Of a DNA stretch of 64,000 bases, positions 5,708-59,349 are shown piece by piece. The translations under genes and the position numbers were made by a program. The notes beneath the pieces were generated by a model. It had not been told where the DNA came from, ran no database searches, and saw nothing but the letters and a program-made list of their open reading frames with translations. The stretch is from Candidatus Aphodoplasma sp. (GTDB lineage Bacteria > Bacillota > Clostridia > UBA1381 > UMGS1253): NCBI GenBank assembly GCA_045592745.1, contig JAZNVH010000025.1, forward strand, positions 130,152 through 194,151. Direction: 5' to 3'. The number at the start of each line of letters is the position of its first letter. Position 1 is the first letter of the stretch.

Positions 5708-6058
5708 TTAATCGACACGAGCACTTTCCACGCTGACGTTGATTTTTCCAACCTTGCAGCCGGTCATACTTTCTATGCTGTATTTTACATTCTTGATAAT
5801 GCTTTCACATATTGCTGAAATATTAACTCCGTATTCAACCATAATGTGCAAATCTATGGTTATACGGTCGTTCTCTGTTGAAATATTTATCCCTTTTGTA
5901 ATTGAATCACCTAACAAAAGTCCTACAAGACCGTTTCCTTTGCGCGTTGCCATACCAACAACACCATAACAGCGAGTTGCTGCCATGCCTGCTATTTTTG
6001 CTAAAACTTCATTTTGAATGACGATGATGCCATTTTCATTTTCAGTTTGAAGTGTCAT
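5708..6058 (-). CDS. Asp23/Gls24 family envelope stress protein (YloU-like)
   Basis: Asp23-family sequence in the conserved position upstream of yloV. I prefer the ATG at 6058 (GGAGG RBS 8 nt upstream) over 6073. Confidence 0.88.
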   Translation of the reverse strand: MTLQTENENGIIVIQNEVLAKIAGMAATRCYGVVGMATRKGNGLVGLLLGDSITKGINISTENDRITIDLHIMVEYGVNISAICESIIKNVKYSIESMTGCKVGKINVSVESARVD

Positions 6059-6129
6059 AAAACATACCTCCATATTAAGCTGATATTAAGTACACTACAT
6101 ATAATTTTATCATAAATTATTTAAATAGT

Positions 6130-13988: not shown

Positions 13989-14025
13989 TATAAGCTTGCA
14001 TAAAAAACAAAAAGGAGCTTAAAAA

Positions 14026-42287: not shown

Positions 42288-42740
42288 TTAATAATTATAC
42301 AACCATCTTGATGGAATTAAGAAAGTATACGGTGCCGTAACAATCGCAAATGTTAAAGCAAGTTTGATTCTTAATTTTTTGTCGCACCATTTAAATGACA
42401 TATAATAATTTAAAATGTATATACACGTCGCTGCAATCAAAAGCGCAGGGACAGTCATATACCACTCATCGCCCATACGACCAATCTCAAAGCCAATCGT
42501 CATAATAAGCAGATATGCAGAGCCTATTAAATCAGATATTATTCCTATCGAAAATATTTTGAGTATACTTCTTTTGTAGAATTCCTTTTTATTTTCAAAG
42601 CGCAGAATCCACATTGCAATAATAAAAACTATACTGTCTATAATAAAATTTCCGGGTATAATAATAAGCCATGTTACAGGAAAAAGTAATATCATCCACA
42701 ATGGGAACAAAACATTATATAATTTAACATCTTTTTTCAT
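42288..42740 (-). CDS. Small hypothetical membrane protein (about 4 TM)
   Basis: 150 aa from MKKDVKLYNVLFPLWMILLFP. Four hydrophobic segments and no recognisable family. The first 25 codons in the track run through the kdgK remnant and are probably not translated. Confidence 0.55.
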   Translation of the reverse strand: MKKDVKLYNVLFPLWMILLFPVTWLIIIPGNFIIDSIVFIIAMWILRFENKKEFYKRSILKIFSIGIISDLIGSAYLLIMTIGFEIGRMGDEWYMTVPALLIAATCIYILNYYMSFKWCDKKLRIKLALTFAIVTAPYTFLIPSRWLYNY

Positions 42741-42756
42741 TGCAATCCCCCTTTGT

Positions 42757-42858
42757 TTCACTTTGTGAAATCTTATCTTTATTAGGTGCGGAAAGTCTAA
42801 GCATAACCTCACCAAAGCTTATAAGGTCAAAATCTGCATATTTTTTTATAAAATCCAT
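42757..42858 (-). pseudogene. 5' remnant (about 34 codons) of a PfkB-family sugar kinase, 2-dehydro-3-deoxygluconokinase-like
   Basis: 'MDFIKKYADFDLISFGEVMLRLSAPNKDKISQSE' matches the KdgK N-terminal pattern (D.(V/I)(T/S)FGE.M(L/M)RLS.P). Similarity then stops, and the frame ends after 10 unrelated codons. Confidence 0.55.
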
Positions 42859-43016
42859 AATTTTCACTCTTTTCTGTTTGTAAAATAAATTTTTGTAATA
42901 TATAGTTAAGTATAGCACAATCAGTAAATTTAGTCAATTTTTTAATGCCTTTTTCATAGTATCTATATGCTTTGCAAAAAAACTTATATATTTTACTTAT
43001 TTTAGCAGTAAAACAC

Positions 43017-43045
43017 TTGCTATCAGTTGTTTTTTATGTTACAAT
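43017..43045 (+). promoter_or_regulatory. SigA-type promoter upstream of the malic-enzyme-led operon
   Basis: TTGCTA, 17-nt spacer, TACAAT, preceded by TGt (extended -10). Confidence 0.55.
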
Positions 43046-43129
43046 AACAGCGTATGTTTATTTCTTGTGGGGCGATTATTCGCAAGAAAAATTTAAAATC
43101 AAATTTTTTATTATCAGGAGGACAAAAAA

Positions 43130-44299
43130 ATGGATATCAAACAACAAGCATTACAAAAGCATGGCGAATGGAAAGGCAAAATCGAAGTTATCTCAAGAGC
43201 ACCTTTGAAAGATGCAACAGATCTTTCTTTGGCATACACACCGGGTGTTGCTGAGCCTTGTCTTGAGATTCAGAAAGATGTAACAAAATCTTTTGATCTT
43301 ACAAGACGTCACAACCTTGTTGCAGTAGTTACAGACGGTTCAGCAGTTCTTGGTTTGGGTGATATTGGTCCTGAAGCAGGTATGCCCGTAATGGAAGGCA
43401 AATGCGCTTTGTTTAAGACATTTGCAGACGTCGACGCCTTCCCAATTTGTATAAAATCACAGGATGTTGATGAAATCGTAAGAACAGTACAGCTTATTTC
43501 AGGAAGCTTTGGCGGTGTAAACCTCGAGGATATTGCTGCACCAAGATGCTTTGAAATCGAGTCAAGACTCAGAGAAGTATGTGATATTCCCGTATTCCAT
43601 GATGACCAGCATGGTACAGCTATCGTGTGTGCTGCTGCAATGTTAAACGCACTCAAACTGGTTAAAAAGGACATGGATAAAATAAAAATTGTAATAAGCG
43701 GTGCAGGTAGTGCTGGTACTGCTATTGCTGACCATTTGATGAGACTCGGCGCAAAGAACATTCTTATGGTTGGTAGAGCAGGTGTATTGTGCGACGGTAA
43801 AGAAACAAGACCTGCATATATAGAACTTGCAAAAAGAACTAACCCCGAGCATATTACAGGAAGTCTTGCAGATGCATTGGTTGGTGCTGACGTTTTTATC
43901 GGTGTGTCCGCACCAAATATCGTATCAAAGGAAATGGTTGCTACTATGGCAAAAGATGCTTTGGTATTTGCAATGGCAAATCCTGTTCCGGAAATTTTCC
44001 CGGACGAAGCTATCGCAGGTGGTGCAAAAGTTGTAGGAACAGGTCGTTCGGACTATCCTAACCAAATTAACAACGTTCTTGCTTTCCCCGGAATTTTCAG
44101 AGGTGCACTTGATGTAAGAGCAAGCGATATTAACGATGAGATGAAGATGGCAGCTTCTCACGCAATCGCAGACCTTATAGCCGAGGAAGATTTAAAGCCT
44201 GATTACATTATCCCCGGTGCTTTCGACGAAAGAGTAAGCAGCGCTGTTGCAAAGGCAGTTGCAGAAGCAGCAAGAAAAACCGGCGTTGCAAGATTATAA
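43130..44299 (+). CDS. NAD(P)-dependent malic enzyme (short form, oxaloacetate-decarboxylating)
   Basis: 'LAYTPGVA', 'VVTDGSAVLGLGDIG', 'FGGINLEDI'-like 'FGGVNLEDI', 'FHDDQHGTA', 'GAGSAG' and 'NNVLAFPG' motifs. Confidence 0.93.
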   Translation: MDIKQQALQKHGEWKGKIEVISRAPLKDATDLSLAYTPGVAEPCLEIQKDVTKSFDLTRRHNLVAVVTDGSAVLGLGDIGPEAGMPVMEGKCALFKTFADVDAFPICIKSQDVDEIVRTVQLISGSFGGVNLEDIAAPRCFEIESRLREVCDIPVFHDDQHGTAIVCAAAMLNALKLVKKDMDKIKIVISGAGSAGTAIADHLMRLGAKNILMVGRAGVLCDGKETRPAYIELAKRTNPEHITGSLADALVGADVFIGVSAPNIVSKEMVATMAKDALVFAMANPVPEIFPDEAIAGGAKVVGTGRSDYPNQINNVLAFPGIFRGALDVRASDINDEMKMAASHAIADLIAEEDLKPDYIIPGAFDERVSSAVAKAVAEAARKTGVARL

Positions 44300-44334
44300 T
44301 CAAAACTATAATTAATACAAGGAGTTTTTTCGAA

Positions 44335-45093
44335 ATGACAACAAAAAAAGTAGTAAATTTACCAGTAAAAATTTTTGATACTCGCGAAGAAATGGGTGTT
44401 GATTCAGCAAAGCGTGTTGCTGAGGTTATAAATGCTGCAATAGCTGAAAAAGGCGTTGCAAATGTTGTTTTTGCAGCAGCTCCCTCACAGGATGATATGC
44501 TAAAGAGTCTTTTGGAGCAGGATATCGACTGGTCAAAAGTTCGCGCTTTCCATCAGGACGAGTACATAGGAATAGCAGACGATGAACCTGCAGGTTTTGG
44601 TAACTTTTTAGATCGTGCAATATTTAAAAAAGTAAACTTTAAAGAAATACACTATCTTCGTTGCAAGGCTGACGAAGCTGAAGCAAAATGTGAAGAGTAC
44701 ACAAAGCTGCTCACAGACTATCCTATCGATATGATTTTACTTGGCATCGGCGAAAATGGTCACCTTGCATTCAATGACCCTGCAGTTGCTGATTTTGAAG
44801 ACCCTAAAAAGATTAAAATTGTTGAGCTTGATGATGTATGCCGTCAGCAGCAGGTTAACGATGGTTGCTTCGCTACACTCGATGATGTTCCAAAGCAGGC
44901 AATGAGTCTTACTATGTCGTTTATTATGTCTGTTCCCCATGCAGTATGTGTTGTTCCCACAATTCGTAAGGCAAACGCTGTATACAATGCTCTTAATGGT
45001 CCTGTAACTACAGCTTGTCCTGCAAGCATACTTAGAAATCATAATGATGCAATTCTCTATCTTGACAAAGAAAGCGCATCAAAAATTCTGTAA
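44335..45093 (+). CDS. Glucosamine-6-phosphate deaminase / 6-phosphogluconolactonase (NagB/Pgl) family protein
   Basis: 'FHQDEYIG' and 'LLGIGENGHLAFNDP' family motifs. 252 aa. True substrate not inferable. Confidence 0.82.
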   Translation: MTTKKVVNLPVKIFDTREEMGVDSAKRVAEVINAAIAEKGVANVVFAAAPSQDDMLKSLLEQDIDWSKVRAFHQDEYIGIADDEPAGFGNFLDRAIFKKVNFKEIHYLRCKADEAEAKCEEYTKLLTDYPIDMILLGIGENGHLAFNDPAVADFEDPKKIKIVELDDVCRQQQVNDGCFATLDDVPKQAMSLTMSFIMSVPHAVCVVPTIRKANAVYNALNGPVTTACPASILRNHNDAILYLDKESASKIL

Positions 45094-45110
45094 TCTACGA
45101 GGTATAGAAT

Positions 45111-45842
45111 ATGGAAATGTTCAAAATGACTGCTGATGAAATTTGCTCTCTTGACCCCGAGCTTGCAATAATATCTGTTGGTTCTATTGAGCAACATGGT
45201 CCGCATCTGCCGATAATGACCGATTGGGCTATTGCGACAGAACTCGGCAAGCGTGTTGCTGAAAAGATGGGCGCGTTTTCACTTCCTGCATTTCCTGTTT
45301 CGACTTGCCGTGAGCATATGGGAAAAAAAGGCTCAGTATGGATGGAACCAACAACCTTTTATCAAATGATGTACGATGTTATAATGAGCCTTAAAACTCA
45401 GGGGTTTAAGCGTGTAGGAATTATAACAACTCATGGTGGAGTTTTTATCACAACGCCGCTTGTGAGAGATTTAAACGCAAAATTCCAACCCGATTTGCAG
45501 GTTGCTCTTGTAGAATCGTATTCTTTCAAAGCAGAAGATATAATAGAAACACAAGGCCTTCATGCTGACGAAGCAGAAACCTCACAAATGCTCGCAATTG
45601 CACCTGAAACTGTGCATATGGACAAAGCGGCAGATTTTGTTCCCGATGTTTCCAGGGCATATCTTGGTTATGGTAGCATTTTTCGTGCAAGTCCGACAGG
45701 CGTTTGGGGGTATCCTACAAAGGCTACAGCCGAAAAAGGAGAACGTTTTTTTGAAGTATGTGCAGATATGGCAGTAGATGAATTTAACAAAGCATTTGAT
45801 TATATGAGCAATAAAGAAAAGTTTGGTTATAGTAATTTTTAA
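45111..45842 (+). CDS. Creatininase-family amidohydrolase
   Basis: 'GSIEQHGPHLP..TD', 'THGG' and 'HADE.ETS' metal-ligand pattern of the creatinine amidohydrolase family. Confidence 0.85.
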   Translation: MEMFKMTADEICSLDPELAIISVGSIEQHGPHLPIMTDWAIATELGKRVAEKMGAFSLPAFPVSTCREHMGKKGSVWMEPTTFYQMMYDVIMSLKTQGFKRVGIITTHGGVFITTPLVRDLNAKFQPDLQVALVESYSFKAEDIIETQGLHADEAETSQMLAIAPETVHMDKAADFVPDVSRAYLGYGSIFRASPTGVWGYPTKATAEKGERFFEVCADMAVDEFNKAFDYMSNKEKFGYSNF

Positions 45843-45863
45843 CTAAAGCAAGGAGAAAATATT

Positions 45864-46934
45864 ATGAAAAAATTAAGAGTACTTTTAATTGGTGCTGCGT
45901 TTTCGGCAGATTTACATTCTGACGGATACAGCAGAATTCTGGACAAGGTTGACATTGTAGGTATTTGTGACAAAAACCTTGATGCAATAAAGACTTTGGC
46001 TGACAGATATGGTTTTACAGGTTATGAAGTATACGACAATTATGATGATGCTATCAAAAACTGCGATTGTGACGTAGTTGATATCTGTATGCCAAACTTT
46101 CTTCACCACGATGTAGCTATAAAGGCAATGAATGCAGGCCATGACATTATATGCGAAAAGCCCCTTGCTACAACGGTTGAAGATGCATACGACATGGTAA
46201 AAACTGCAAAAGACCTTGGAAAGCATATTTATTATGCAGAAGACTGGCTCTTTGCACCGGCTTTCAGAAAAGCAGTATCTATTATCGAAAGCGGTCAGCT
46301 TGGAAAAATGCTCTATGTAAGAGCAAGAGAATGTCACAGCGGTTCTCACAGTCCGTTTGCACAGACTATCAAATACTGCGGTGGCGGATGCATGGTACAT
46401 CTTGGTGTTCATCCTGTTGCATTTATGCTTGCTATGAAGGATAACAAATGGTCTGAGCTTGCTGCAATGACATCAGGTGGCGGTGAAAATAATATCGTTC
46501 ATCAAAAAATGGAAGGTGAAGACTGGGCAGGTGCGTTTATGCGCTTTGATGACGGCACTTACGCTACACTTGAAGCTAACTATGTTACAGTTGGTGGTAT
46601 GGAGGATATTCTCGACGTTTACTGCGAAAAAGGTACAATCCATGTAGACCTCTCCTTCCAGGGCCCTGTAAAAGTATTTTCAATCCCGGGTCTTGACTAT
46701 ACAATTGAAAAGGCTGAGGTTACTACAGGCTGGGCTAACGTTGCTGTAGATGAAAAGTATCAACTCGGATACTGCGGAGAAATAAACCACTTCGTAGATT
46801 GTGCTCTCGAAGGCAAAGATGCACAGGTTGGTCTTCGAGGCATAGATGGTTATGAAACACTTAAGGTTATAAACCTTATTTATAAAGCATCAAAAGAAGG
46901 AAAGAATATCAAAAATACCGGTGAGGAAGTGTAA
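45864..46934 (+). CDS. Gfo/Idh/MocA family oxidoreductase
   Basis: N-terminal Rossmann ('LRVLLIGAAF') and the 'EKPLA' motif. 356 aa. Confidence 0.88.
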   Translation: MKKLRVLLIGAAFSADLHSDGYSRILDKVDIVGICDKNLDAIKTLADRYGFTGYEVYDNYDDAIKNCDCDVVDICMPNFLHHDVAIKAMNAGHDIICEKPLATTVEDAYDMVKTAKDLGKHIYYAEDWLFAPAFRKAVSIIESGQLGKMLYVRARECHSGSHSPFAQTIKYCGGGCMVHLGVHPVAFMLAMKDNKWSELAAMTSGGGENNIVHQKMEGEDWAGAFMRFDDGTYATLEANYVTVGGMEDILDVYCEKGTIHVDLSFQGPVKVFSIPGLDYTIEKAEVTTGWANVAVDEKYQLGYCGEINHFVDCALEGKDAQVGLRGIDGYETLKVINLIYKASKEGKNIKNTGEEV

Positions 46935-46938
46935 ATTT

Positions 46939-49515
46939 ATGAACAAAAAACCTGTAGATATACAAATCCCTGTAACCATTGGTGGTGTGACCTTTAAAAA
47001 CCCGTTTTTCGTGGCTTCGGGTCCTACCACAAAATCTGTTAAACAATTAATAAGAATCGAGGAAACGGGCTGGGCTGCTGCATCTATAAAGCTTAGTATA
47101 GACCCTGCTCCCTACATAAACAGAAAGCCGCGTTATTCACTTTTCAAAGACAGAGATGCATTGGCTTTTACGGCTGAGAAGCGTCTTACATTTGAAGAAG
47201 GCTTAAAGCTCATACGCGACGCAAAACCAAAGCTTCACGACCTTAAACTTATGGCTAACATTACCTATGCCGGCGACAATGGCGTTGAAGGCTGGGTAAA
47301 CATGGCTAAGAAGTTTGAAGAAGCCGGTGCAGATATCATCGAGCTTAATATGTGCTGTCCCAATATGAGCTACAATATGGAAATGACAAGTGGCGGTAAA
47401 GAAACCGGCAAAAAACAGACCGGAGCAAGTATGGGTCAGCAAACAGAGGTTGCCGCTGAAATTGCAAGAGCCGTAAAACAGGCGATTTCTATCCCCCTCT
47501 TTGTAAAGCTTACTCCCGAGGGCGGCCAGATTGCAAAGGTAGCAAAGGCTCTTTATGAAGCCGGTGCAGATGCTGTAGGTGGTACAGGTAACAGACTTGG
47601 TATGCCCCCTATCGACATTGATGATCCGGGCAGTGCTTTTTATCACTTGCAAAAAGAGATTTCTATGGGTTGCCACTGTGGTAAATGGCTTAAACCATTG
47701 GCTCAGCGCGATACATATGAAATTAGAAAAGTATGTGGTATGGATGCTCCCATTATGGCTGCAGGCGGTATAACAAACTGGCGTGACGCTGTAGAGATGA
47801 TTCTTTGCGGCGGTAACCTTCTTGGTGTTTGCGCAGAAACTCTTATCTCCGGATACGATATATGCAGACCTATGATCGAGGGCCTTGATAAATATATGCA
47901 CGAGCACGGGTATACAGATCTTTCACAAATGCAGGGTCTTGTTGTTCCGCAGGTGCGCACTGCAAATGATGTAACTATCTTTGCAGGATATGCAAAAATT
48001 AAAGAGCCTAATCTTAGCGCTCCGTGTAAAAGTGCATGTCCCCACCACGTTCCAACTCAGGCATATATTCAAAAGATTGCAAAGGGCGAATATAAAGAGG
48101 CATATGACCTTATAACAGGCAAAAATCCTCTTCAAAACATTTGCTCATTTGTATGTAATCATCCGTGTGAAGATGCCTGTATAAGAGGAGGATATGACTC
48201 CCCTGTTAAAATTCGTCAGTTAAAGAGATTTGTTCTCGAATATGGTAAGGCTCAAGGCTGGACTCCTGCGTGGGCAAAAGCAGACTTTAATGGACACAAG
48301 GTAGCTGTTATAGGCGCAGGCCCTGCGGGACTTTCATGTGCGTCTGAGCTTAGAAAAGCCGGATATGATGTTACGGTATTTGAGAAAGAAGAATTAGCAG
48401 GCGGATTAATCAGATTTGGTATTCCGGATTATGTTATGAAAAAGGATATCCTGGATGAAGAGATAAAATTCCTTGCTGATAATGGTGTAAAATTCGAGTT
48501 TGGAAAAGAGCTTGGAAAAGATATTACGATAGACAGTATCAAATCTCTTGGATACGAAGCAATTTTTGCAGCTATCGGTATGGGCAAAAAGGTAGCAAGC
48601 AATATCGAAGGAGCTGACAAAGCTTTAGATGCTTTGGATTTTCTTAAAGATGTTTCTCTTGGCAAAAACACATCATTAGATCGTGATGTTGTTGTTATCG
48701 GCAAAGGCTTTGCCGCAATGGACAGTGCAAGAAGTGCTGCTCGTCTTGGTGCAAGTCACGTAACTTTGATTTGGACAGGCAACTATCCAAGCAGAACATA
48801 CGATGCCGATGCTCTTGCGCTTGCTAAAGAAGAAGGCATTGTGCTTATTGACAATGCATCTGTAAAATCCATATCAGATGACGCTGTAATCGCTGATTGC
48901 GGCGGAACTAATATGACTATCCCCTGCAATAAGGTTATTGTGGCAAACGAATACGAAGCAGATGCAAGCGTACTTGCAGGAGCGGAAACAAAGAATGGCT
49001 TTATAAAGATTTCAAATGCAAGAACAAACATAGACGGTCTGTACTGTGGCGGAAACGCAGTTCGCTCTGCAAATGTAATTACAGCTATTGCTGCAGGCAA
49101 AAACGCTGCGGCAGTTATCGATAGTGATATAAGAGGCGAAGAAGCTACATTAGTAGCAATTCCTTCTACAAAAACAGTTAACCCCGAAATCGTACGCGAA
49201 AGAACAGGTTATCTTAAAAAAGATAATAATGCTCTTAAGCTTAACGATGCAGCAGATATTCGCAAAGAAAACTTTGAGATGTACGAGAGAGTAATGACTG
49301 AGCAGGAAGCACAAAAAGAAGCTTCAAGATGTCTAAATTGCGGTTGTGGTGAAGGATGTCAACTTTGTAAAACAATTTGTACAGACTTTGCTCCCGAGAT
49401 TATCGATACAGATACTATGCACATAAGAAAAGAAGATTGTGTTGCTTGTGGTATGTGCTTTAACCGTTGTCCTAATGGAAACATCGAAATGGTTGATCTT
49501 GGATACACAGTATAG
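46939..49515 (+). CDS. Multidomain Fe-S flavoprotein: DHOD/PreA-like FMN barrel, then GltD/PreT-like Fe-S FAD/NAD(P) module, then a C-terminal ferredoxin-like Cys cluster domain
   Basis: N-terminus has 'NPFFVASGP' and 'ELNMCCPN' (DHODH/DPD barrel). The middle has 'CKSACPHHVP...CSFVCNHPCEDAC', 'KVAVIGAGPAGLSCA' and 'VVVIGKGFAAMD' (glutamate synthase small-subunit-like). The C-terminus has 'CLNCGCGEGCQLCKTIC' and 'CVACGMCFNRCP'. The ATG at 46939 follows GGTGAGGAAG. Confidence 0.85.
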   Translation: MNKKPVDIQIPVTIGGVTFKNPFFVASGPTTKSVKQLIRIEETGWAAASIKLSIDPAPYINRKPRYSLFKDRDALAFTAEKRLTFEEGLKLIRDAKPKLHDLKLMANITYAGDNGVEGWVNMAKKFEEAGADIIELNMCCPNMSYNMEMTSGGKETGKKQTGASMGQQTEVAAEIARAVKQAISIPLFVKLTPEGGQIAKVAKALYEAGADAVGGTGNRLGMPPIDIDDPGSAFYHLQKEISMGCHCGKWLKPLAQRDTYEIRKVCGMDAPIMAAGGITNWRDAVEMILCGGNLLGVCAETLISGYDICRPMIEGLDKYMHEHGYTDLSQMQGLVVPQVRTANDVTIFAGYAKIKEPNLSAPCKSACPHHVPTQAYIQKIAKGEYKEAYDLITGKNPLQNICSFVCNHPCEDACIRGGYDSPVKIRQLKRFVLEYGKAQGWTPAWAKADFNGHKVAVIGAGPAGLSCASELRKAGYDVTVFEKEELAGGLIRFGIPDYVMKKDILDEEIKFLADNGVKFEFGKELGKDITIDSIKSLGYEAIFAAIGMGKKVASNIEGADKALDALDFLKDVSLGKNTSLDRDVVVIGKGFAAMDSARSAARLGASHVTLIWTGNYPSRTYDADALALAKEEGIVLIDNASVKSISDDAVIADCGGTNMTIPCNKVIVANEYEADASVLAGAETKNGFIKISNARTNIDGLYCGGNAVRSANVITAIAAGKNAAAVIDSDIRGEEATLVAIPSTKTVNPEIVRERTGYLKKDNNALKLNDAADIRKENFEMYERVMTEQEAQKEASRCLNCGCGEGCQLCKTICTDFAPEIIDTDTMHIRKEDCVACGMCFNRCPNGNIEMVDLGYTV

Positions 49516-49535
49516 TATATAAGGAGGAAATAAAA

Positions 49536-50354
49536 ATGTATTCAGTTAATTTTGACATTTCGGGTCAGGTTGCTGCTATAACAGGTGCAGGTGGTATTAT
49601 TTGCGGTTGTTTGGCAAAAGAGATGGCAAAAAAAGGTGTTAAAGTGGCACTTCTCGATTTGTTCGTAGATAATGCCCAGAAAATTGCAGACGAAATAGTT
49701 GCAGATGGCGGAGACGCTATTGCAGTAAAAGCAGATGTGCTCAGCCGTGAGAGTCTTGAAGTTGCAAGAGATGAAATTGTTGCTAAATACGGCAAGATTG
49801 ATATTCTTGTAAATGGTGCAGGCGGAAATAAGCCCCAGGCAACAGTATCTAAGGACAAGGATTTCTTTAACTTGGATTTGGATGCTTTCAAATGGGTATT
49901 CGACCTTAACGTAACAGGTGCGGTGCTTACTACTATGGTATTTGGTGAGCTTTTGGCAAAGCAGGGCTACGGTAACGTTATCAACATTGCATCAATGTCA
50001 AGCTATCACCCGCTTACAAATACAGTTGCATATTGTGGTGCTAAAGCTGCTGTTGCAAACTTTACGGAGTGGATGGCAACTCACTTTAACCAAAACTACA
50101 GCAATAATATCCGTGTTAACGCTATTGCTCCCGGTTTCCTACTTACAAACCAGAATCGTTACCTTTTGACAAACGAGGATGGTTCAGCTACTGACAGAGG
50201 TCAGAGAGTTTTGGCTAAAACTCCGATGAATCGTTACGGCGAACCTGTTGAAATGGCTGGTCCAGTTATCTTCCTTTGCTCAGAGGCTGCTTCGTTCATT
50301 AATGGCGCAGTACTCCCCGTTGATGGTGGTTTCTCATCATATTGGGGCGTATAA
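49536..50354 (+). CDS. SDR family oxidoreductase (resembles the SDR-type mannonate/fructuronate oxidoreductases)
   Basis: 'ITGAGGIIC', 'NGAGGN', 'Y..AK' catalytic pair and 'PGF..T.QNR.LL' tail. Subfamily assignment is from memory. Confidence 0.88.
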   Translation: MYSVNFDISGQVAAITGAGGIICGCLAKEMAKKGVKVALLDLFVDNAQKIADEIVADGGDAIAVKADVLSRESLEVARDEIVAKYGKIDILVNGAGGNKPQATVSKDKDFFNLDLDAFKWVFDLNVTGAVLTTMVFGELLAKQGYGNVINIASMSSYHPLTNTVAYCGAKAAVANFTEWMATHFNQNYSNNIRVNAIAPGFLLTNQNRYLLTNEDGSATDRGQRVLAKTPMNRYGEPVEMAGPVIFLCSEAASFINGAVLPVDGGFSSYWGV

Positions 50355-50387
50355 AAATATACTTTATAGAAAGAAGAGGATTATATT

Positions 50388-51479
50388 ATGCAGTATCATC
50401 ATATTGATTACAAAAAGCTTGAAACATTCTGTATAGAAGCTTTCAAGGGTTATGGCTTTAACGAAGAAGAAAGTAAGCAAATTACAGCAGTTCTTCTTGA
50501 AGCTGATTTGAGCGGGATTGAATCACACGGTATACAGCGTATGATTCGTTATCACAAAGAAATCACAGGCGGCATGGTTAAAATTGATGCAAAGCCTGAG
50601 GTAGTATTTGAAACTCCTCTTTCAGCAGTAATTGAGGGTAACGATGCTATGGGACAAACTCTTGGCGTAAATGCTATGCAAATGGCTATCGATAAGGCTA
50701 AGAAGTCAGGTTTTGGTATGGTTACAGTTCGTAATTCAAACCACTACGGTGTTGCAGGATATTATGCAAGAATGGCTGCATCAGAAGGTCTTATTGGTAT
50801 GTCTATGACAAACACAGAAGCTATTATGGTGCCCACATTTGGTAAACAAGCTATGCTTGGCACAAATCCAATAGCTTTTGCTATGCCTGCAGACCCTGTG
50901 GCTTACTCATTTGACGCAGCCACAACTGTTGTTCCGAGAGGAAAACTCGAAGTTTATGTTAAGCGCGGAAATGGTCTTCCGATTGGTTGGGCGCTTGATG
51001 AAAACGGTCACGACAGTGACGAACCCGATAGAGTTTTGTCAAACATAATAAACAAAACAGGCGGCGGTATCCTTCCCCTTGGCGGTTCTGGCGATTTGAC
51101 ATCAGGTTATAAAGGTTACGGTTTTGCAATGCTTTGCGAAATTGCAACAGCTATTCTCTCAGGTGGTACAACTTCAAATTACATATACAAAACTCCGGGC
51201 AGATCAAACATTGCACAGTGCTATATTGCTTTGGATTATGGTATGTTTGGCGACAAGAAAGAAATCGAGGCTGCTCTTTCCAAGTATTTGCAGGAGGTTC
51301 GCGATTCTGCAAAAGCAGAAGGTGCAGAGCGTATATACATTCACGGTGAAAAAGAGGCAGAGGCAAGAAACCGCGTTTTGACCGAAGGTGTACCGCTTAA
51401 CGAAAAAACTTATGATGAAATGAAGATGATAGCTGAGTTCACAGGTTCTTCGGCATATCTTCCCGAGTACATCGACTAA
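50388..51479 (+). CDS. Ldh_2 (type-2 malate/L-lactate dehydrogenase) family oxidoreductase
   Basis: 'G..SHG..R...Y', 'RNSNHYGVAGYY' and 'MLGTNPIAFAMP' family motifs. Confidence 0.88.
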   Translation: MQYHHIDYKKLETFCIEAFKGYGFNEEESKQITAVLLEADLSGIESHGIQRMIRYHKEITGGMVKIDAKPEVVFETPLSAVIEGNDAMGQTLGVNAMQMAIDKAKKSGFGMVTVRNSNHYGVAGYYARMAASEGLIGMSMTNTEAIMVPTFGKQAMLGTNPIAFAMPADPVAYSFDAATTVVPRGKLEVYVKRGNGLPIGWALDENGHDSDEPDRVLSNIINKTGGGILPLGGSGDLTSGYKGYGFAMLCEIATAILSGGTTSNYIYKTPGRSNIAQCYIALDYGMFGDKKEIEAALSKYLQEVRDSAKAEGAERIYIHGEKEAEARNRVLTEGVPLNEKTYDEMKMIAEFTGSSAYLPEYID

Positions 51480-51497
51480 TTATTAAAAAGTATATGC

Positions 51498-51528
51498 AAA
51501 AACCACGCGACTATCGCGTGGTTTTTGT
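51498..51528 (+). terminator. Rho-independent terminator ending the 43.1-51.5 kb operon
   Basis: ccacgcga-cta-tcgcgtgg (51503-21), flanked by an A-run and TTTTT. Confidence 0.8.
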
Positions 51529-51536: not shown

Positions 51537-51570
51537 AAAAGGCAATTTTTATAAAAGAAAATTGCCTTTA
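51537..51570 (-). terminator. Terminator of the AGCS transporter gene
   Basis: ggcaatttt (51541-49) pairs with aaaattgcc (51558-66). On the minus strand it is followed by TTTTAT. Confidence 0.55.
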
Positions 51571-51576
51571 AAATTT

Positions 51577-53091
51577 TTATAGTCTTTTTTCTTCCTCTTC
51601 CTGAACATCGGCAAATGCAGAAAGCATCGGTTTGATATCCTTGTGTTTTAGATTTCTGTCTATGTAGTTTCTTGTAATCTTGACAACAAGTCCCGAAAGT
51701 GCAAGAACACCAATAAGGTTAGGTACCATCATGAGTCCGTTGAATGTATCGGAAATATCCCATGCAAGCGACGATGTCAAAAGCGCACCGCACATAATCA
51801 TCACAAGGTGGATAACCTTGTAAAGCTTTGTTGACTTTGTGCCAAACAAATATTCCCACGCTTTGCTTCCGTAATGGTCCCATCCAAGAACTGTTGTAAA
51901 TGCAAACAATAAAATTGCAATTGCAATAAATCTTTCGCCCCATACACCAAACAAAATCGAAAAGGCTTTTGCAACAAGATTTGCATCAGTTGCGCCCTGC
52001 ATAAGTGCACCTGTTTCAAGATTGATTACGCCGGATGTAAGTACAACAAGAGCGGTCATTGTGCAAACAACCATTGTATCGGCAAATACTTCAAAAATGC
52101 CCCAAAGACCCTGACGTACAGGCTCTACAACATTTGAGTTTGAATGAACCATAACCGATGAACCAAGACCTGCCTCATTTGAGAAAACACCTCTCTTACA
52201 TCCGAGAGTTACAATTTCTTTTACGGCAATACCAGCAGCACCGCCCCATACTGCCGGGCCTGTAAATGCATACTTAAAGATTGATGCAAACGCAGCTCCG
52301 ACAGAAGCATAATTTACACCAATTATAATAAGACTTCCCAAAACAAATAACACTACCATAAAAGGAACAACTTTCTCAGCAAAATTTGCAATTCTCTTGA
52401 GTCCACCAAGAATAATAAGCGCCGCAATAACTACGAGCACAATGCCTATAATAAGATGGTACATTGTTACGTTTCCAAAAGGAATCGCTGCAAGTGACGG
52501 AATCTGAAATGCATCTACCATATTAACAACAATTTTATTAATCTGACCCATTGCACCGATACCAAATGATGCGAGAATTGCAAAAATTGAGAAAAGCACT
52601 GCAAGAATTGCACCAATCCATTTACAACCTTTAATTTTGCCAAGACCATCTCTTAAATAGTACATAGCGCCGCCTGACCACTCACCGTCTGCATTCTTTC
52701 TTCTGTAATAGATACCAAGAACGTTTTCTGAGTAGTTTGTCATCATACCAAGAAATGCCGCAACCCACATCCAGAAGACTGCACCGGGACCACCGCCTAC
52801 AATCGCAGCTGCAACACCGGCAATATTACCTACACCTATTGTAGCTGCAAGAGCAGTACAAAGCGCCTGAAACTGCGATATTGACTTGCCCTTAACATGT
52901 CCTGAAACATCCTTGTTGAAAATCTTTCCAATTGTTTCAGAGAACCAGTGTCCTATATGTGTTATCTGGAAAACACCTGTGATAACAGTCATTATAAGAC
53001 CCGTTGCCAAGAGCAGATAAAGACCCTTGCCCCACACAAAACTGTTGACATTGTTATTAAAATTTGTCAACACCTCAAAAAAGTTTGCCAT
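51577..53091 (-). CDS. Alanine/glycine:cation symporter (AGCS family)
   Basis: 'FQALCTALAATIGVGNIAGVA.AI..GGPGA.FWMW' AGCS signature. The ATG at 53091 follows GAGGAGG. Confidence 0.92.
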   Translation of the reverse strand: MANFFEVLTNFNNNVNSFVWGKGLYLLLATGLIMTVITGVFQITHIGHWFSETIGKIFNKDVSGHVKGKSISQFQALCTALAATIGVGNIAGVAAAIVGGGPGAVFWMWVAAFLGMMTNYSENVLGIYYRRKNADGEWSGGAMYYLRDGLGKIKGCKWIGAILAVLFSIFAILASFGIGAMGQINKIVVNMVDAFQIPSLAAIPFGNVTMYHLIIGIVLVVIAALIILGGLKRIANFAEKVVPFMVVLFVLGSLIIIGVNYASVGAAFASIFKYAFTGPAVWGGAAGIAVKEIVTLGCKRGVFSNEAGLGSSVMVHSNSNVVEPVRQGLWGIFEVFADTMVVCTMTALVVLTSGVINLETGALMQGATDANLVAKAFSILFGVWGERFIAIAILLFAFTTVLGWDHYGSKAWEYLFGTKSTKLYKVIHLVMIMCGALLTSSLAWDISDTFNGLMMVPNLIGVLALSGLVVKITRNYIDRNLKHKDIKPMLSAFADVQEEEEKRL

Positions 53092-53119
53092 ATTATTTCC
53101 TCCTCTTTTTTGCGCTAAA

Positions 53120-53340
53120 TAAAGCAAAAACGGAGTTTTTGAAATACAAAAACTCCGCGCAAAAAAAGCATCTATAACTTTTTTCTCCGTCCTTTTGCCT
53201 GAGAGATTAACCCTTTTGGGTCTTACACCTTCGGCATCCTTTTATATTGGGACTTCTCCGGAGTGCTATCTGTGAACAGTCATCACCATCGCGCCTGAGA
53301 GCTTTACTCCTTCGGCAAGGCTTACACCTTTCTCCTGCAC
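53120..53340 (-). promoter_or_regulatory. Tandem glycine riboswitch with terminator expression platform
   Basis: Minus-strand aptamer 1 is GCAGGAGAAAGG..GCCGAAGGAGUAA..CUCUCAGGCG. Aptamer 2 is CUCCGGAGAAG..UGCCGAAGGUGUAA..AAUCUCUCAGGCAAAAGGACGGAG (aptamers about 53181-53340). The terminator is CGGAGUUUUUG-uauuuc-AAAAACUCCG (53131-57) followed by UUUUUGC. Confidence 0.85.
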
Positions 53341-53372: not shown

Positions 53373-53401
53373 ATTATACGCCTATTTTGTCGAATTGTCA
53401 A
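53373..53401 (-). promoter_or_regulatory. Exact-consensus SigA promoter driving the glycine riboswitch
   Basis: Minus strand TTGACA (53401-396), 17-nt spacer, TATAAT (53378-73). Confidence 0.7.
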
Positions 53402-53423: not shown

Positions 53424-53984
53424 TTACAAATTATATCCCAGTTCAAACGCCTTAAGGTTTGACTCCATAAACTTTTCAGGTGTTGATGTCTTAATCGTAT
53501 TAACCCACTTTTCATAAGGAATATCAGTATTTTTTGCCATAAGACCAATTAATACGACATTAACAGCTTTAACATTGCCTGCCTCTTTTGCATATTTAAG
53601 TGCATCAACTGTAACAACATCAATCTTTTCCGAAAGCTTTTCCTCGATATTTTCAGGATACTTCATCGCACCTGTAATTACAGGCATCGGGTCAATCTGC
53701 TGGGTATTTACAAGCATTTTTCCACCTTTTTTAAGATACGGAAGCGCTCTGTACGCCTCAAGCTTTTCAAATGCAAGAATTATATCAGCTTCACCGCGGT
53801 CGATTATCGGAGAATAAACCTTTTTTCCAAACTTAACGTATGTAACAACGCTGCCGCCTCTCTGGCTCATGCCATGAACCTCAGAAACCTTTACATCATA
53901 GCCTTCGTTTACAACTGTGTTGCCGAGTATACGGCTTGCAAGCAAGGTTCCCTGACCGCCTACGCCTACTATCATTATATTCAT
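53424..53984 (-). CDS. iorB: Indolepyruvate:ferredoxin oxidoreductase, beta subunit
   Basis: 'IMIVGVGGQGTLLASR', 'VHGMSQRGGSV'. Its size and its position 3 nt after iorA fit. Confidence 0.9.
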   Translation of the reverse strand: MNIMIVGVGGQGTLLASRILGNTVVNEGYDVKVSEVHGMSQRGGSVVTYVKFGKKVYSPIIDRGEADIILAFEKLEAYRALPYLKKGGKMLVNTQQIDPMPVITGAMKYPENIEEKLSEKIDVVTVDALKYAKEAGNVKAVNVVLIGLMAKNTDIPYEKWVNTIKTSTPEKFMESNLKAFELGYNL

Positions 53985-53987
53985 AGC

Positions 53988-55721
53988 TTACTCCCCCTTC
54001 TCCATTGCACCAAACGGACAAACATTAAAGCAAAGTCCGCAACCGTTGCACTGTGTCTCGTCAATAACTATCTTCTCTCCGTCAAACGAGATTGCAGGAC
54101 ATCCAAGCTTTAAGCAAAGCTTACACTTTTTGCAGTTATCGTTTATCTTACACTTGCCTGTGTACTTAACAGACTTTAATAGTGCACAAGGTCTTTGAGC
54201 AATAATTACTGAAGGCTCGTCACGCTCTGTTTCCTCTTTAACAACCTTTTCAAAATTCTTTACATCAAACGGGTCAGCTACAACAACATTTTTAACACCG
54301 ATTGACTTACAGAGGTCAACAAGATTAACCTGGGTGGTTTCTTCGCCTCTTATGGTGTATCCCGTTGTAGGATTGTTCTGATGTCCCGTCATGCCTGTAA
54401 TAGAGTTGTCAAGAATAATAACTGTATTTGCGCCCTTATTATACACTATATCAACAAGACCCGTGATACCTGAATGCATAAATGTCGAATCACCTATAAC
54501 AGAAACAAGCTTTTTGTTAAACTCTGCGCCTCTTGCCTTCGCCATGCCATGAGCAGCACTTACAGAAGCACCCATACATATCGTTGTATCAACGCTTTCA
54601 AGTGGAGCAACCGCTCCAAGAGTATAACAACCGATATCGCCCGACACTGTAAGACCGAGCTTTTTAAGAACATAAAATGTTCCTCTGTGAGGACAGCCTG
54701 CGCACATAACGGGCGGTCTAACGGGGATAATCTCGTCAATTTTTGCGCTTTCCGGTGCGCCTTCTCCTAATACTGCCGCTTTTATCATAGAAGGAGTATA
54801 CTCGCCAAGCAAAGTAAACTTTTCTTTGCCAATAACATCAATACCGATTGCACGGCAATGCTTTTCTATAACAGGGTCAAGCTCCTCTATTACATAAACC
54901 TTATCACACTTTGCAGCAAAATCTTTTATAAGCTTCTCAGGCAAAGGATAAACCATACCGAGCTTTAAGTAATTAACCTTGTCGCCAAGCGCTTCTTTTG
55001 CATACATATATGCAATACCCGATGTAATCACGCCGATTTTGCTGCCGTTATCTTCTACTATGTTAAACTCGCAATTTTCAGCATACTCTTTTAGTGCCGC
55101 AATGCGTTCTTCAACTACAACGTGTCTTTTTATCGCCTTTGCAGGCATCATAACATATTTATCTATATTCTTCTCGTACGGTTTAAGCTGTGTTTTTTCA
55201 GGCTCAAGATCTTCTACAAGGCTCTGTGAATGTGATACTCTTGTAGAAAGACGGATAAATACAGGCGTATCAAACTTTTCGCTCAGCTCAAACGCCGCCT
55301 TTGTATACTCCTTACACTCCGCTGAATCCGCAGGCTCAAGCATAGTAATCTTTGATGCCTCTGCATAGTGGCGCGAATCCTGCTCATTCTGTGATGAGTG
55401 CATTCCGGGGTCATCTGCCACGCAGAAAACAAGTCCGCCATTTACGCCTGTATAACTGACAGTAAAAACAGGGTCAGCCATAACATTCAAACCTACATGC
55501 TTCATACAGGACATACTTCTTGCACCTGCGATTGATGCACCGATTGCAACCTCTGCTGCAACTTTTTCATTTGGTGACCATTCTGCATAAACCTCTTCAT
55601 ATTTAACAATATTCTCGGTAATTTCGGTGCTTGGAGTACCCGGATAAGAAGCAACAACCGAAACACCTGCCTCATAAGCACCACGGGCAACCGCCGCATT
55701 GCCGAGCATAAGCTTCTTCAT
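53988..55721 (-). CDS. iorA: Indolepyruvate:ferredoxin oxidoreductase, alpha subunit
   Basis: 'GN.A.ARGA.EAG...ASYPGTPSTE', TPP-binding 'GDSTF.HSG' and a C-terminal 2x[4Fe-4S] ('CKKCKLC..LGCPA', 'CNGCGLCFNVCP'). Confidence 0.92.
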   Translation of the reverse strand: MKKLMLGNAAVARGAYEAGVSVVASYPGTPSTEITENIVKYEEVYAEWSPNEKVAAEVAIGASIAGARSMSCMKHVGLNVMADPVFTVSYTGVNGGLVFCVADDPGMHSSQNEQDSRHYAEASKITMLEPADSAECKEYTKAAFELSEKFDTPVFIRLSTRVSHSQSLVEDLEPEKTQLKPYEKNIDKYVMMPAKAIKRHVVVEERIAALKEYAENCEFNIVEDNGSKIGVITSGIAYMYAKEALGDKVNYLKLGMVYPLPEKLIKDFAAKCDKVYVIEELDPVIEKHCRAIGIDVIGKEKFTLLGEYTPSMIKAAVLGEGAPESAKIDEIIPVRPPVMCAGCPHRGTFYVLKKLGLTVSGDIGCYTLGAVAPLESVDTTICMGASVSAAHGMAKARGAEFNKKLVSVIGDSTFMHSGITGLVDIVYNKGANTVIILDNSITGMTGHQNNPTTGYTIRGEETTQVNLVDLCKSIGVKNVVVADPFDVKNFEKVVKEETERDEPSVIIAQRPCALLKSVKYTGKCKINDNCKKCKLCLKLGCPAISFDGEKIVIDETQCNGCGLCFNVCPFGAMEKGE

Positions 55722-55816
55722 TTTAAATCATCCCTTCCTTATTTGCGCAAATGATATCAGCTCAAAATCTGACATACTAAGTATAGCAAATCTTGAGCTG
55801 TTTTTCAACAGTTTAG

Positions 55817-57451: not shown

Positions 57452-57475
57452 CTTATCTCACCTTTATTTTATATT

Positions 57476-59020: not shown

Positions 59021-59050
59021 TTTTACATCTACCCTTTCTTTTGAGGGCAT

Positions 59051-59349
59051 AAAAAACGCCCTCATAATAATATGAGGGCGAAAATCTCGCGGTACCACCT
59101 CATTTTACCGCACTCTCACGGGCGCGGCCTTTACGAGTACTGCCTTCGGGTGACAGCTATACAGCTAGGCGTATACTCTCTTGCTGTAACGGGCAATCCC
59201 GTCGCAGCCTACTGAGATAAAAATCCGTTCGGTGCGCAGCTCGCGAAATGTATTCAGATATTCCCGATTTACTGTCTCGCAGCAACCGACAGCTCTCTTA
59301 AAACCTAAAGAATACCCTACTTGTTTTCGGTCATAGCCTTTAAATGTTA
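59051..59349 (-). promoter_or_regulatory. T-box leader, specifier UAC (Tyr)
   Basis: Minus strand has a K-turn (AUGA/GA), AGUA box, AGAGAG bulge plus distal loop, specifier loop GAA-UAC-A (UAC at 59252-59250), F-box CCGUUA and T-box AAAUGAGGUGGUACCGCGAG (59105-59086). The terminator is CGCCCUCAU-auuauu-AUGAGGGCG (59080-59057) followed by UUUUUU. Confidence 0.88.

Follow-up and report, generated by a model that had tools for sequence, protein, structure and literature searches.

A conserved clostridial operon built around a sugar dehydrogenase and an Fe-S flavoprotein, most likely for sugar-acid catabolism

One of the described systems closest to the locus considered here is the myo-inositol pathway of Thermotoga maritima, which runs through IolG (a dehydrogenase of the Gfo family), IolM, IolN (a hydrolase of the creatininase family) and IolO, and then through UxaB, UxaA, KdgK and Eda. 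To our knowledge, it is the only known combination of a Gfo-family dehydrogenase with a creatininase-family hydrolase, and it ends in a keto-hexonate, a uronate-type reductase and 2-keto-3-deoxygluconate (KDG). Another is the ong pathway of Pseudoalteromonas for oxidised chitin, in which N-acetylglucosaminate (GlcNAc1A) is turned into glucosaminate (GlcN1A) by the D-aminoacylase OngB, then into KDG and ammonia by the pyridoxal phosphate (PLP)-dependent OngC, and finally into KDG-6-phosphate by KdgK (PMC9537276). Here we describe an operon that recalls both in part. Its seven genes encode a malic enzyme, a NagB-like protein, a creatininase-family protein, a Gfo/Idh/MocA-family protein (Gfo), an Fe-S flavoprotein resembling dihydropyrimidine dehydrogenase (DPD), a short-chain dehydrogenase/reductase (SDR) and an Ldh_2-family protein, and they lie within 64,000 nucleotides (nt) of DNA from Candidatus Aphodoplasma sp. 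(assembly GCA_045592745.1, contig JAZNVH010000025.1, positions 130,152 to 194,151), hereafter the window.

The cluster is no chance mosaic: it is a real, conserved and uncharacterised catabolic operon, most likely a sugar-acid catabolic cluster that feeds KDG/hexonate metabolism and is built on the pair of Gfo and flavoprotein. We found no published description of the cluster or of this pairing, which speaks to the searchable literature and is not proof of novelty.

A conserved operon and its variants

In the window, the operon has the following features, all on the plus strand (lengths in amino acids, aa):

43017-43045, plus strand: candidate sigma-70-type promoter TTGCTA-17-TACAAT with TG extension, in a 314-bp divergent intergenic region
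43130-44299, plus strand: malic enzyme gene (389 aa; Pfam malic and Malic_M)
44335-45093, plus strand: NagB-like gene (252 aa; Pfam Glucosamine_iso, PF01182)
45111-45842, plus strand: creatininase-family gene (243 aa; Pfam Creatininase, PF02633)
45864-46934, plus strand: Gfo/Idh/MocA gene (356 aa; Pfam GFO_IDH_MocA and C-terminal domains)
46939-49515, plus strand: DPD-like Fe-S flavoprotein gene (858 aa; DHO_dh, Fer4_20, Pyr_redox_2 and Fer4)
49536-50354, plus strand: SDR gene (272 aa; Pfam adh_short)
50388-51479, plus strand: Ldh_2 gene (363 aa; Pfam Ldh_2, PF02615)
51496-51527, plus strand: intrinsic terminator, a bidirectional hairpin closing the operon, called from fold energy and U-tract

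A first-pass annotation, made from the letters of the DNA, had named these seven families, all of which Pfam confirmed, and had read the genes as a single redox-heavy transcript with short gaps and a good ribosome-binding site each. This was borne out on re-measurement: the gaps are 35, 17, 21, 4, 20 and 33 nt, in order, and a GGAGG-like site precedes all seven starts. For the flavoprotein gene we prefer the ATG at 46939, 4 nt past the Gfo stop, as the start; the open reading frame (ORF) list begins at GTG 46921. Of the two signals said to bracket the run, the strong terminator stands, with a fold energy of -26.8 kcal/mol (z = -6.4 against shuffles) ahead of a U-tract (TTTTTGTT). The promoter sequence is present, but it matches 9 of 12 consensus positions and such matches are not enriched (45 found against 38.6 expected in shuffles), leaving an assignment that is plausible from position alone. 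Terminator-like hits within the operon were weak, with stems of 5-7 bp, and numbered 12 where 12.4 were expected; the leader of about 85 nt had no Rfam match and holds only AT-rich inverted repeats. With one strand, short gaps, no internal terminator and a gene order kept in other genomes, the seven genes form, as judged from sequence and comparison, a single transcription unit. Its neighbours in the window are housekeeping genes. The annotation had also noted that kinase, transporter, aldolase and regulator are missing, which holds for the window, where none is encoded for the operon, but not for related loci, which carry them.

Scanning one genome per species with the flavoprotein revealed at least 392 species-level relatives. 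From these, 80 loci were fetched and mapped by tblastn of the reference proteins; 79 were scored for pairing and 47 had full flanks. Almost all are from uncultured, metagenome-assembled genomes (MAGs) of chicken, ruminant, rabbit, rodent/mouse and human guts, anaerobic digesters and sediments, and among the carriers Oscillospiraceae, Faecousia, Christensenellaceae and Lachnospiraceae predominate, next to a few Anaerolineae and Bacteroidota. In 77 of the 79 scored loci, the Gfo gene is the immediate upstream neighbour of the flavoprotein gene. Within the 47 full-flank loci, we counted NagB-like genes in 39, creatininase in 38, Ldh_2 in 34, SDR in 32, malic enzyme in 20, Eda in 11, KDG-kinase-like genes and D-2-hydroxyacid dehydrogenases in 8 each, and FGGY kinases in 4. 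The first three neighbourhoods inspected each held a run of NagB-like, creatininase, Gfo, flavoprotein and Ldh_2 genes, to which were added either LacI, a Liv-type ATP-binding cassette (ABC) importer and 2-keto-3-deoxy-6-phosphogluconate (KDPG) aldolase with PfkB, or malic enzyme with NfnAB-like genes. The check for synteny in related genomes that the first-pass annotation had called for thus came out in favour of a cluster: the genes are syntenic, not scattered, and LacI or TetR regulators and the Liv-type importer travel along. Because dozens of other genomes repeat this gene order, we take the seven genes to be one functional unit.

Four architectures illustrate how the cluster varies:

Variant A (the window): malic enzyme, optional TetR, NagB-like, creatininase, Gfo, flavoprotein, SDR, Ldh_2
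Variant B: LacI, divergent short Gfo paralogue, five ABC genes, core, other Ldh_2 subtype, Eda, KDG kinase
Variant C: TetR, creatininase, Gfo, flavoprotein, D-2-hydroxyacid dehydrogenase, SDR, FGGY kinase, Eda
Variant D: front as in B, then mannitol-dehydrogenase-family enzyme, LarA homologue, FGGY kinase, 2-hydroxyacid dehydrogenase, Eda

Since creatininase is absent from four operons and the NagB-like gene from variant C, the Gfo-flavoprotein pair is the invariant heart of the cluster, to which these two genes seem to be accessories at the front end. As for the genes that come and go, Eda passes its NCBIfam cut-off, the PfkB proteins are KDG- or KDGal-kinase-like and the FGGY kinases gluconokinase-like by NCBIfam and Pfam. 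The LarA homologue passes the model for a "nickel-dependent putative hexonate epimerase", and characterised gluconate/mannonate 2-epimerases have been described among LarA homologues (PMC11770544). For the mannitol-dehydrogenase-family enzyme, the best models are those of D-arabinitol 4-dehydrogenase, fructuronate reductase and tagaturonate reductase, which score alike and fall far short of their cut-offs; four loci (L052, L055, L068 and L076) have it and lack the SDR, and three of these place it immediately after the flavoprotein gene. Besides this exchange of SDR for mannitol_dh, genes of the same role are swapped between Ldh_2 and D-2-hydroxyacid dehydrogenase (2-Hacid_dh), PfkB and FGGY, and creatininase and Amidohydro_3, which we take to be the Pfam family of D-aminoacylases such as OngB. 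Amidohydro_3 takes the place of a missing creatininase gene in three loci, and two loci without creatininase have, directly past the flavoprotein gene, one that by eye resembles NodB deacetylases; four operons (L010, L025, L047 and L080) cleanly lack the creatininase gene and are intact otherwise. NfnAB-like genes flank the clusters of L004, L010, L016 and L071, and a 15-gene run in L067 holds regulators and importers of substrate type inside the same operon. The binding protein of the Liv-type transporter is closest to amino-acid/amide binders. Uronate isomerase UxaC and the mannonate/altronate dehydratases UxuA and UxaA were seen in no locus, and Pfam scans of the wider flanks found no recurring glycoside hydrolase or lyase that would name a parent polymer.

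The closest relative, locus L005 (95% identity), carries a TetR gene between the malic enzyme and NagB-like genes (L005 3516-7255 compared with 42288-44335 of the window) and, divergent from the operon, a KDG-kinase-like PfkB and a gene that looks histidine-phosphatase-like by eye; all three are absent in the window. Since this sister keeps TetR and the KDG-kinase-like gene, the window's operon is a trimmed version from which regulator and kinase have been lost. Divergent from the operon in the window lies a 175-aa ORF (42288-42815, minus strand) without Pfam match, whose counterpart in L005 is membrane-protein-like and adjoins an aldose-1-epimerase gene.

Some small or solitary genes were seen in related clusters. 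At least 12 loci encode a conserved membrane protein of about 100 aa between NagB-like/creatininase and Gfo (for example L001 7913-8182, L038 7853-8146, L022, L017 and L012), which the window lacks and which may be an importer where the ABC system is absent. We had considered it as a SemiSWEET/PQ-loop sugar carrier, a likeness seen by eye that found no match in Pfam or among PDB sequences, and dropped the idea. A small ORF of 82-87 aa directly follows the flavoprotein gene in some variants (L001 12503-12751, L038 12511-12771; the L038 copy has no Pfam match). In single loci, we noted a purple-acid-phosphatase-like protein and a sodium:solute symporter (L078, Bacteroidales, 5503-7392 and 13677-15104) and a TauE/SafE-family anion permease directly after the KDG kinase (L048, Christensenellaceae, 16590-17393). 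These two sets of extras are possible hints at the substrate, as a phosphorylated precursor or an anionic one.

The encoded proteins and the pathways they could fit

At the centre of the operon, the flavoprotein has the building blocks of DPD in permuted order: DHO_dh with flavin mononucleotide (FMN), Fer4_20, the flavin adenine dinucleotide (FAD)/NAD(P) module and two [4Fe-4S] clusters. DHO_dh thus comes first, where in DPD it follows the flavin/NADPH domains. The protein misses the PreA model NF006183 (200.6 against a cut-off of 335 bits; scores below are likewise set against cut-offs), and its C-terminal two-thirds resemble NAD(P)H modules of the GltD/NfnB type. On alignment to pig DPD, Cys140 corresponds to the catalytic Cys671, N137 to Asn668 and N218 to Asn736, all invariant, as are all Fe-S cysteines of the family; the N-terminal DHO_dh barrel, its substrate site included, is almost invariant. 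In place of the Asn609 segment stands FTAEKR, itself invariant, Thr737 has become Arg219, and the active-site loop has 12 extra residues; the pocket is thereby remodelled and rich in Arg and Lys. In our reading, the protein oxidises or reduces a C=C bond conjugated to a carbonyl, in a substrate that is probably anionic and is not uracil. Its homologues at 66-95% identity are numerous and, like all products of the cluster, bear generic names only, such as "FAD-dependent oxidoreductase". A 234-aa ORF runs antisense within the gene (47203-47907, minus strand); it is almost certainly not a gene, and comparable antisense ORFs of high-GC relatives even exceed the real genes in length.

The first-pass annotation had preferred a reductive route for N-heterocycles or lactams: ring reduction by the flavoprotein, opening by the creatininase-like enzyme, deamination, and a funnel to malate and pyruvate. 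In its favour are the DPD/PreA-like domain with its catalytic Cys and the presence of a cyclic-amidase family. The malate-dehydrogenase (MDH)-like Ldh_2 and the malic enzyme of this genome would suit such a route, as would the amino-acid/amide type of the importer, and the Amidohydro_3 proteins of variant loci match dihydroorotase/hydantoinase models, albeit weakly and N-terminally. Yet neither Asn609 nor Thr737, which bind uracil in DPD, is conserved, the company that the cluster keeps elsewhere is one of hexonate/KDG genes under LacI-type control, and the SDR is of the mannonate-oxidoreductase type. Gfo, the obligate partner, would be left without a role, and no carbamoylase, ureidopropionase or aminotransferase is encoded nearby. 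We therefore set the heterocycle route aside as highly improbable.

Gfo itself is best described as a putative NAD(P)-dependent sugar dehydrogenase and obligate partner of the flavoprotein. Its closest solved structures are glucose-fructose oxidoreductase, aldose-aldose oxidoreductase, DgpA and scyllo-inositol dehydrogenase; it misses the IolG model TIGR04380 (108 against 355), and its best model is an archaeal UDP-GlcNAc 3-dehydrogenase (122 against 450). The creatininase-family protein similarly has a clear family (PF02633, 188.5 against 31.3 bits) and misses every equivalog: creatininase (91.5 against 235), MftE (93.8 against 172), IolN (76.8 against 245) and ArfB (36 against 180). Across 53 orthologues, its metal-site residues E27, H29, D38, H108, H151, E154 and E156 are at least 95% conserved; they are the equivalents of the P. 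putida creatininase ligands Glu34, His36, Asp45, His120, (Glu122), His178 and Glu183, in a family of binuclear metal hydrolases. The position equivalent to creatininase 122 is a Gly in an HGG motif, as in the uncharacterised structure 3lub. A metal hydrolase is predicted from this, probably a de-N-acylase or a ring-opening hydrolase.

A family pairing of this kind brings to mind oxidative ring cleavage of a cyclitol as in T. maritima, in which Gfo would act as IolG (inositol to inosose), the flavoprotein would take the role of IolM in an alpha,beta-dehydrogenation of inosose to the 1,3-diketone enol, the creatininase-family protein would act as IolN (diketone to 5-keto-L-gluconate), and the NagB-like protein would isomerise or epimerise in the role of IolO, ahead of SDR, KDG kinase and Eda. 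IolN is the only catalogued sugar-related function of the creatininase family, and the window's protein matches its model at E = 1.5e-21; Gfo matches the IolG model (E = 4e-31) and solved inositol dehydrogenases. These scores (77 against 245 and 108 against 355) are, however, no better than those for MftE, creatininase or UDP-GlcNAc 3-dehydrogenase. Extra Gfo paralogues near several clusters are typical of inositol loci, the purple-acid-phosphatase-like gene and sodium:solute symporter of L078 and glycerophosphodiesterase-like genes seen by eye in three loci would fit, and a keto-hexonate end product suits the context of SDR, mannitol_dh, KdgK and Eda. But the presumed ring-cleaving hydrolase is missing from four intact operons and replaced by Amidohydro_3 in others, the importer is of the amino-acid/amide type, and NagB-type catalytic residues are conserved although no amine would be needed. 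The flavoprotein would gain a chemically sensible role as inosose alpha,beta-dehydrogenase, though we know of no oxidation of a cyclitol by the DHO_dh family. Diketo-inositol, which is reported to exist as an enediolic acid (PMC5327690), would suit an Arg/Lys-lined site of the dihydroorotate dehydrogenase (DHODH) type. On balance, we consider the cyclitol route unlikely.

The NagB-like protein passes PF01182 (69.8 against 27) and misses TIGR00502 nagB (129.2 against 236.9 bits), and NagB of S. mutans is its closest solved structure. In 44 orthologues, the equivalents of Asp72, His143 and Lys208 (E. coli NagB numbering) are invariant, Glu148 is always Asp and Asp141 always Asn. The phosphate loop LPTGGTP (41-TGGTP-45) has given way in all of them to an invariant FAAAPSQ, VANSRFF to CRQQQVNDGCF, and Arg172 is lost (Gln or Gly, depending on the alignment), so that among TGGTP loop, Arg172 and Lys208, the phosphate-site features, Lys208 alone is kept. 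The roles of these residues in catalysis and phosphate binding we take from established knowledge of E. coli NagB. With the catalytic Asp72 and His143 kept but phosphate loop and Arg172 lost, the protein fits a NagB-type reaction on a substrate that carries no phosphate; it is probably a deaminase/isomerase for an unphosphorylated substrate.

Proteins of this fold can also be lactonases, and a nitrogen-free route from an aldonolactone, ascorbate or uronate has to be weighed here. Gfo or the flavoprotein would interconvert an ene(diol)-lactone of the ascorbate/erythorbate type and an aldonolactone, the NagB/Pgl-like and creatininase-like proteins would be lactonases, and SDR and Ldh_2 would take L-gulonate, 2,3-diketogulonate or keto-hexonates to fructuronate and mannonate, and then to KDG. 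The Glucosamine_iso family does include 6-phosphogluconolactonases (pgl match, E = 5e-18), the closest solved relatives of Gfo oxidise C1 of aldoses to lactones, a DPD-type site suits a C=C bond conjugated to a ring carbonyl, the Ldh_2 family includes the 2,3-diketo-L-gulonate reductase YiaK, and some variants have FGGY kinases, like LyxK in the yiaK operon. In the NagB/Pgl fold, DEY is typical of deaminases and DER of lactonases. The window's protein carries DEY and scores higher for NagB than for Pgl, both of which count against a lactonase; so do the substitutes for creatininase, Amidohydro_3 in three loci and by-eye NodB-deacetylase-like proteins in two, which are deacylase families. The importer is again of the wrong, amino-acid/amide, type, and the cluster lacks a decarboxylase or epimerase set of the Ula or Sgb kind. 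This route is improbable in our view.

The SDR provides the sole curated pass in the operon. It passes the D-mannonate oxidoreductase subfamily NF006132 (PRK08277) over its full length with 360.3 against 281 bits, the runner-up family scoring 187.5; NF006132 is a subfamily model and does not prove the substrate. We take it for a keto-hexonate reductase of that subfamily on the strength of this match. The Ldh_2 protein (PF02615, 381 bits) is closest in structure to the type-2 malate dehydrogenase of P. horikoshii (1v9n, E = 3e-84), and it misses the equivalogs for sulfolactate dehydrogenase (242.7 against 500), AllD (173 against 496), YiaK-type enzymes (155.9 against 316) and PRK10098 (188.7 against 336). 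Related loci hold two Ldh_2 subtypes, about 30% identical to each other. Subtype 1, that of the window, has a malic enzyme beside it in 19 of 27 loci, the other subtype in 1 of 7; the latter co-occurs with Eda and KDG kinase in 7 of 7, which suggests different roles for the two. The malic enzyme passes both its Pfam domains (malic, 110.3 against 23.1; Malic_M, 83.8 against 23.5) and, at 389 aa, is short, matching the N-terminal 400 residues of the NADP-malic-enzyme model PRK12861. A sulfo-sugar substrate, raised by the best Ldh_2 match to sulfolactate dehydrogenase and by the TauE permease past KdgK in L048, was dropped: the permease occurs in that one locus, and a KDG kinase would be pointless on a 6-sulfo sugar.

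With five oxidoreductases among seven products, a malic enzyme paired with an MDH-like Ldh_2, a GltD/NfnB-like module and no regulator or transporter in the window, one may ask whether there is a single pathway at all, or rather a redox-balancing, housekeeping operon in which a malate shunt and an Fe-S flavoprotein transhydrogenase or electron sink stand beside unrelated sugar genes. We find this barely credible: the non-redox genes keep their order from family to family and even between phyla, regulators and importers of substrate type lie inside the same operons, as in L067, and the DHO_dh substrate site is almost invariant, as for a specific substrate.

A candidate route from amino-sugar acids

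Returning to sugar-acid catabolism, the nutrient is most likely an N-acylated amino-sugar acid, which the cluster would turn into a hexonate or 2-keto-3-deoxy-hexonate. The full model set out below is tentative: it could well be right, though we would put it at somewhat less than an even chance. That the downstream chemistry runs among hexonates, keto-hexonates and KDG, and does not reduce an N-heterocycle, is what the accessory genes (LacI, Eda, KDG kinase, gluconokinase-like, epimerase and reductase) and the SDR subfamily point to. What the comparisons above show are the structure of the operon, the protein families, synteny, the pairing of Gfo with the flavoprotein, the kept and altered active-site residues and the accessory genes for hexonates and KDG; from these we infer the class of substrate, the order of the steps, the direction of the flavoprotein reaction and the role of malic enzyme.

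To begin with, the creatininase-family hydrolase would remove an N-acyl group or open a cyclic amide or ester, a step that would be optional, as some operons lack the gene. The NagB-like enzyme would then convert an amino-aldose into a keto-sugar and ammonia, with a carboxylate or no charge where glucosamine-6-phosphate (GlcN-6-P) has its phosphate, and would deliver a keto-hexonate, for instance fructuronate or tagaturonate. Gfo would oxidise a hydroxyl to a ketone, making a neighbouring hydroxyl eliminable to give an enone or enol-one, and the C=C bond would be reduced at the DHO_dh/FMN site with Cys140 as proton donor and NAD(P)H as the source of electrons, which would travel by way of FAD and four Fe-S clusters. 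Taken together, Gfo and flavoprotein would achieve a net redox-neutral deoxygenation in lieu of a sugar-acid dehydratase. SDR and Ldh_2 (or D-2-hydroxyacid dehydrogenase) would set the remaining carbonyls to yield KDG or a hexonate; where the cluster encodes kinase and aldolase, these would finish the route, and otherwise ordinary KDG/KDPG or gluconate-6-phosphate metabolism would.

An example may help. Fructuronate, a 5-keto-hexonate, would lose its C3 hydroxyl (aldonate numbering), and the 3,4-ene would be reduced; the SDR would then reduce the 5-ketone, and Ldh_2 oxidise the 2-hydroxyl, to give KDG. This example would use all back-end enzymes, and it would explain why no locus has UxuA or UxaA. 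The malic enzyme and MDH-like Ldh_2 of this genome could in addition form a malate shunt, known from Clostridium thermocellum, that turns NADH into NADPH for the reductase. We propose this role in NADPH supply because malic enzyme tracks the Ldh_2 subtype in 19 of 27 loci and because NfnAB-like genes flank four clusters.

Several points weigh against this route. Should the NagB-like step already yield a keto-hexonate, oxidation by Gfo would seem superfluous, which may point to another substrate or another order of steps; the elimination has no enzyme in the proposal; and we know of no citable precedent for an ene-reductase that replaces a dehydratase. The NAD(P)H site of the flavoprotein, inspected by eye, lacks the classic YRR signature for NADPH. 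NagB-like and creatininase genes are each absent from some variants, and transporters of the Liv type are unusual for sugars. None of the seven products passes a specific NCBIfam enzyme model, the SDR subfamily being a broader one. Finally, the evidence is all comparative and the genomes are MAGs, for which mis-binning is possible, although synteny on a single contig is independent of binning.

These results also bear on what the first-pass annotation had made of the operon as a whole. Its statement that the combination matches no nameable pathway holds up, given that no specific enzyme model was passed and no published description found. Its preferred heterocycle route is not supported, in view of the hexonate/KDG genes that travel along, the SDR subfamily and the loss of Asn609 and Thr737 of DPD, and the second route it had offered, for an unphosphorylated N-acyl-amino-sugar acid, is compatible with the data and now the better of the two. 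The proposed funnel to malate and pyruvate has become uncertain: malic enzyme goes with one Ldh_2 subtype only, and other variants have Eda and a kinase instead. Carbon may nevertheless leave by way of oxaloacetate and malate.

If one were to push the amino-sugar-acid route to its boldest form, the cluster could be the first catabolic route for free N-acetyl-hexosaminuronic acids, namely those of mannosamine, galactosamine and glucosamine (ManNAcA, GalNAcA and GlcNAcA, sugars of capsules, teichuronic acid and enterobacterial common antigen, ECA), or for N-acetyl-L-talosaminuronic acid from the pseudomurein of methanogens, which would be expected in the gut and digester habitats of the cluster. 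It would combine a NagB-type deaminase recognising a carboxylate with a "redox dehydratase" of Gfo and permuted DPD that makes the 3-deoxy carbon of KDG by ene-reduction, both activities not described before. We regard this as improbable speculation.

Whatever the substrate, solving the cluster would tell us on which nutrient abundant uncultured gut Clostridia have a niche, and NagB-like and creatininase-family enzymes would probably turn out to have specificities not seen before. A large and strongly conserved subfamily of DPD-like Fe-S flavoproteins would also gain a function, which has a bearing on predictions, based on homology to preTA, of 5-fluorouracil and pyrimidine metabolism by gut bacteria. 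The Gfo-flavoprotein pair and the ABC binding protein are directly screenable targets.

Neighbouring genes and described systems

Downstream, the operon meets a convergent unit on the other strand:

51577-53127, minus strand: gene of the Na:alanine symporter family, convergent with the operon
53177-53271, minus strand: glycine riboswitch (Rfam RF00504, 55 bits against a cut-off of 32)
53373-53401, minus strand: symporter promoter TTGACA-17-TATAAT (12/12 consensus)

An AT-rich second hairpin at 51538-51569, just past the operon terminator, makes two hairpins that part the convergent genes. The riboswitch sits between the perfect promoter and the symporter gene, which looks like that of a glycine-induced transporter unrelated to the operon; as a transporter for the operon it was ruled out by its own 12/12 promoter and riboswitch. 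Further on, a minus-strand run of four genes (53424-59098) encodes a pair resembling 2-oxoacid/indolepyruvate:ferredoxin oxidoreductase (a gamma-type subunit of pyruvate:ferredoxin oxidoreductase, POR, of 186 aa and a thiamine pyrophosphate, TPP/Fer4 subunit of 577 aa), an AMP-forming acyl-CoA ligase (544 aa) and a sodium:solute symporter (540 aa), and is possibly a unit for the utilisation of aryl- or branched-chain 2-oxoacids or acids.

How, then, does the cluster compare with described systems? As in the ong pathway, an unphosphorylated N-acetyl amino-sugar acid would be deacetylated, deaminated and passed to KDG kinase and aldolase (PMC9537276). The families differ throughout, with a creatininase-family and a NagB-like protein here and a D-aminoacylase and a PLP-dependent deaminase there. 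The ong cluster has no Gfo-flavoprotein pair and uses a sodium:solute symporter (SSS) where we see a Liv-type ABC importer; its hosts are aerobic marine Proteobacteria, whereas the carriers here are anaerobic Clostridia. The inositol pathway of Thermotoga has no DPD-like flavoprotein, NagB-like protein or Ldh_2, its transporter is of another type, and the hydrolase is dispensable here.

With NagA and NagB, which take N-acetylglucosamine-6-phosphate (GlcNAc-6-P) to GlcN-6-P and on to fructose-6-phosphate and ammonia, the cluster would share the succession of a metal-dependent deacylase and an enzyme of the Glucosamine_iso fold. Here, however, no kinase or phosphotransferase system (PTS) precedes, the presumed deacylase comes from another superfamily, and phosphate loop and Arg172 are replaced. 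Mammalian DPD, PreT/PreA of E. coli and class 1B dihydroorotate dehydrogenase resemble the flavoprotein in the FMN-binding DHO_dh barrel with its catalytic Cys, the two N-terminal-type and two C-terminal-type [4Fe-4S] clusters and the FAD/NAD(P)H module; unlike them, it is always paired with a sugar dehydrogenase, and neither dihydropyrimidinase nor beta-ureidopropionase lies nearby. The SDR subfamily and the accessory genes recall the hexuronate isomerase pathway and its gluconate-epimerase variant, with UxuB/UxaB, the LarA homologues GntE, GntK, KdgK and Eda (PMC11770544, PMC6978723). It is in the upper part, where four unrelated enzymes stand in our loci and UxaC, UxuA and UxaA were not seen, that the cluster departs from that pathway.

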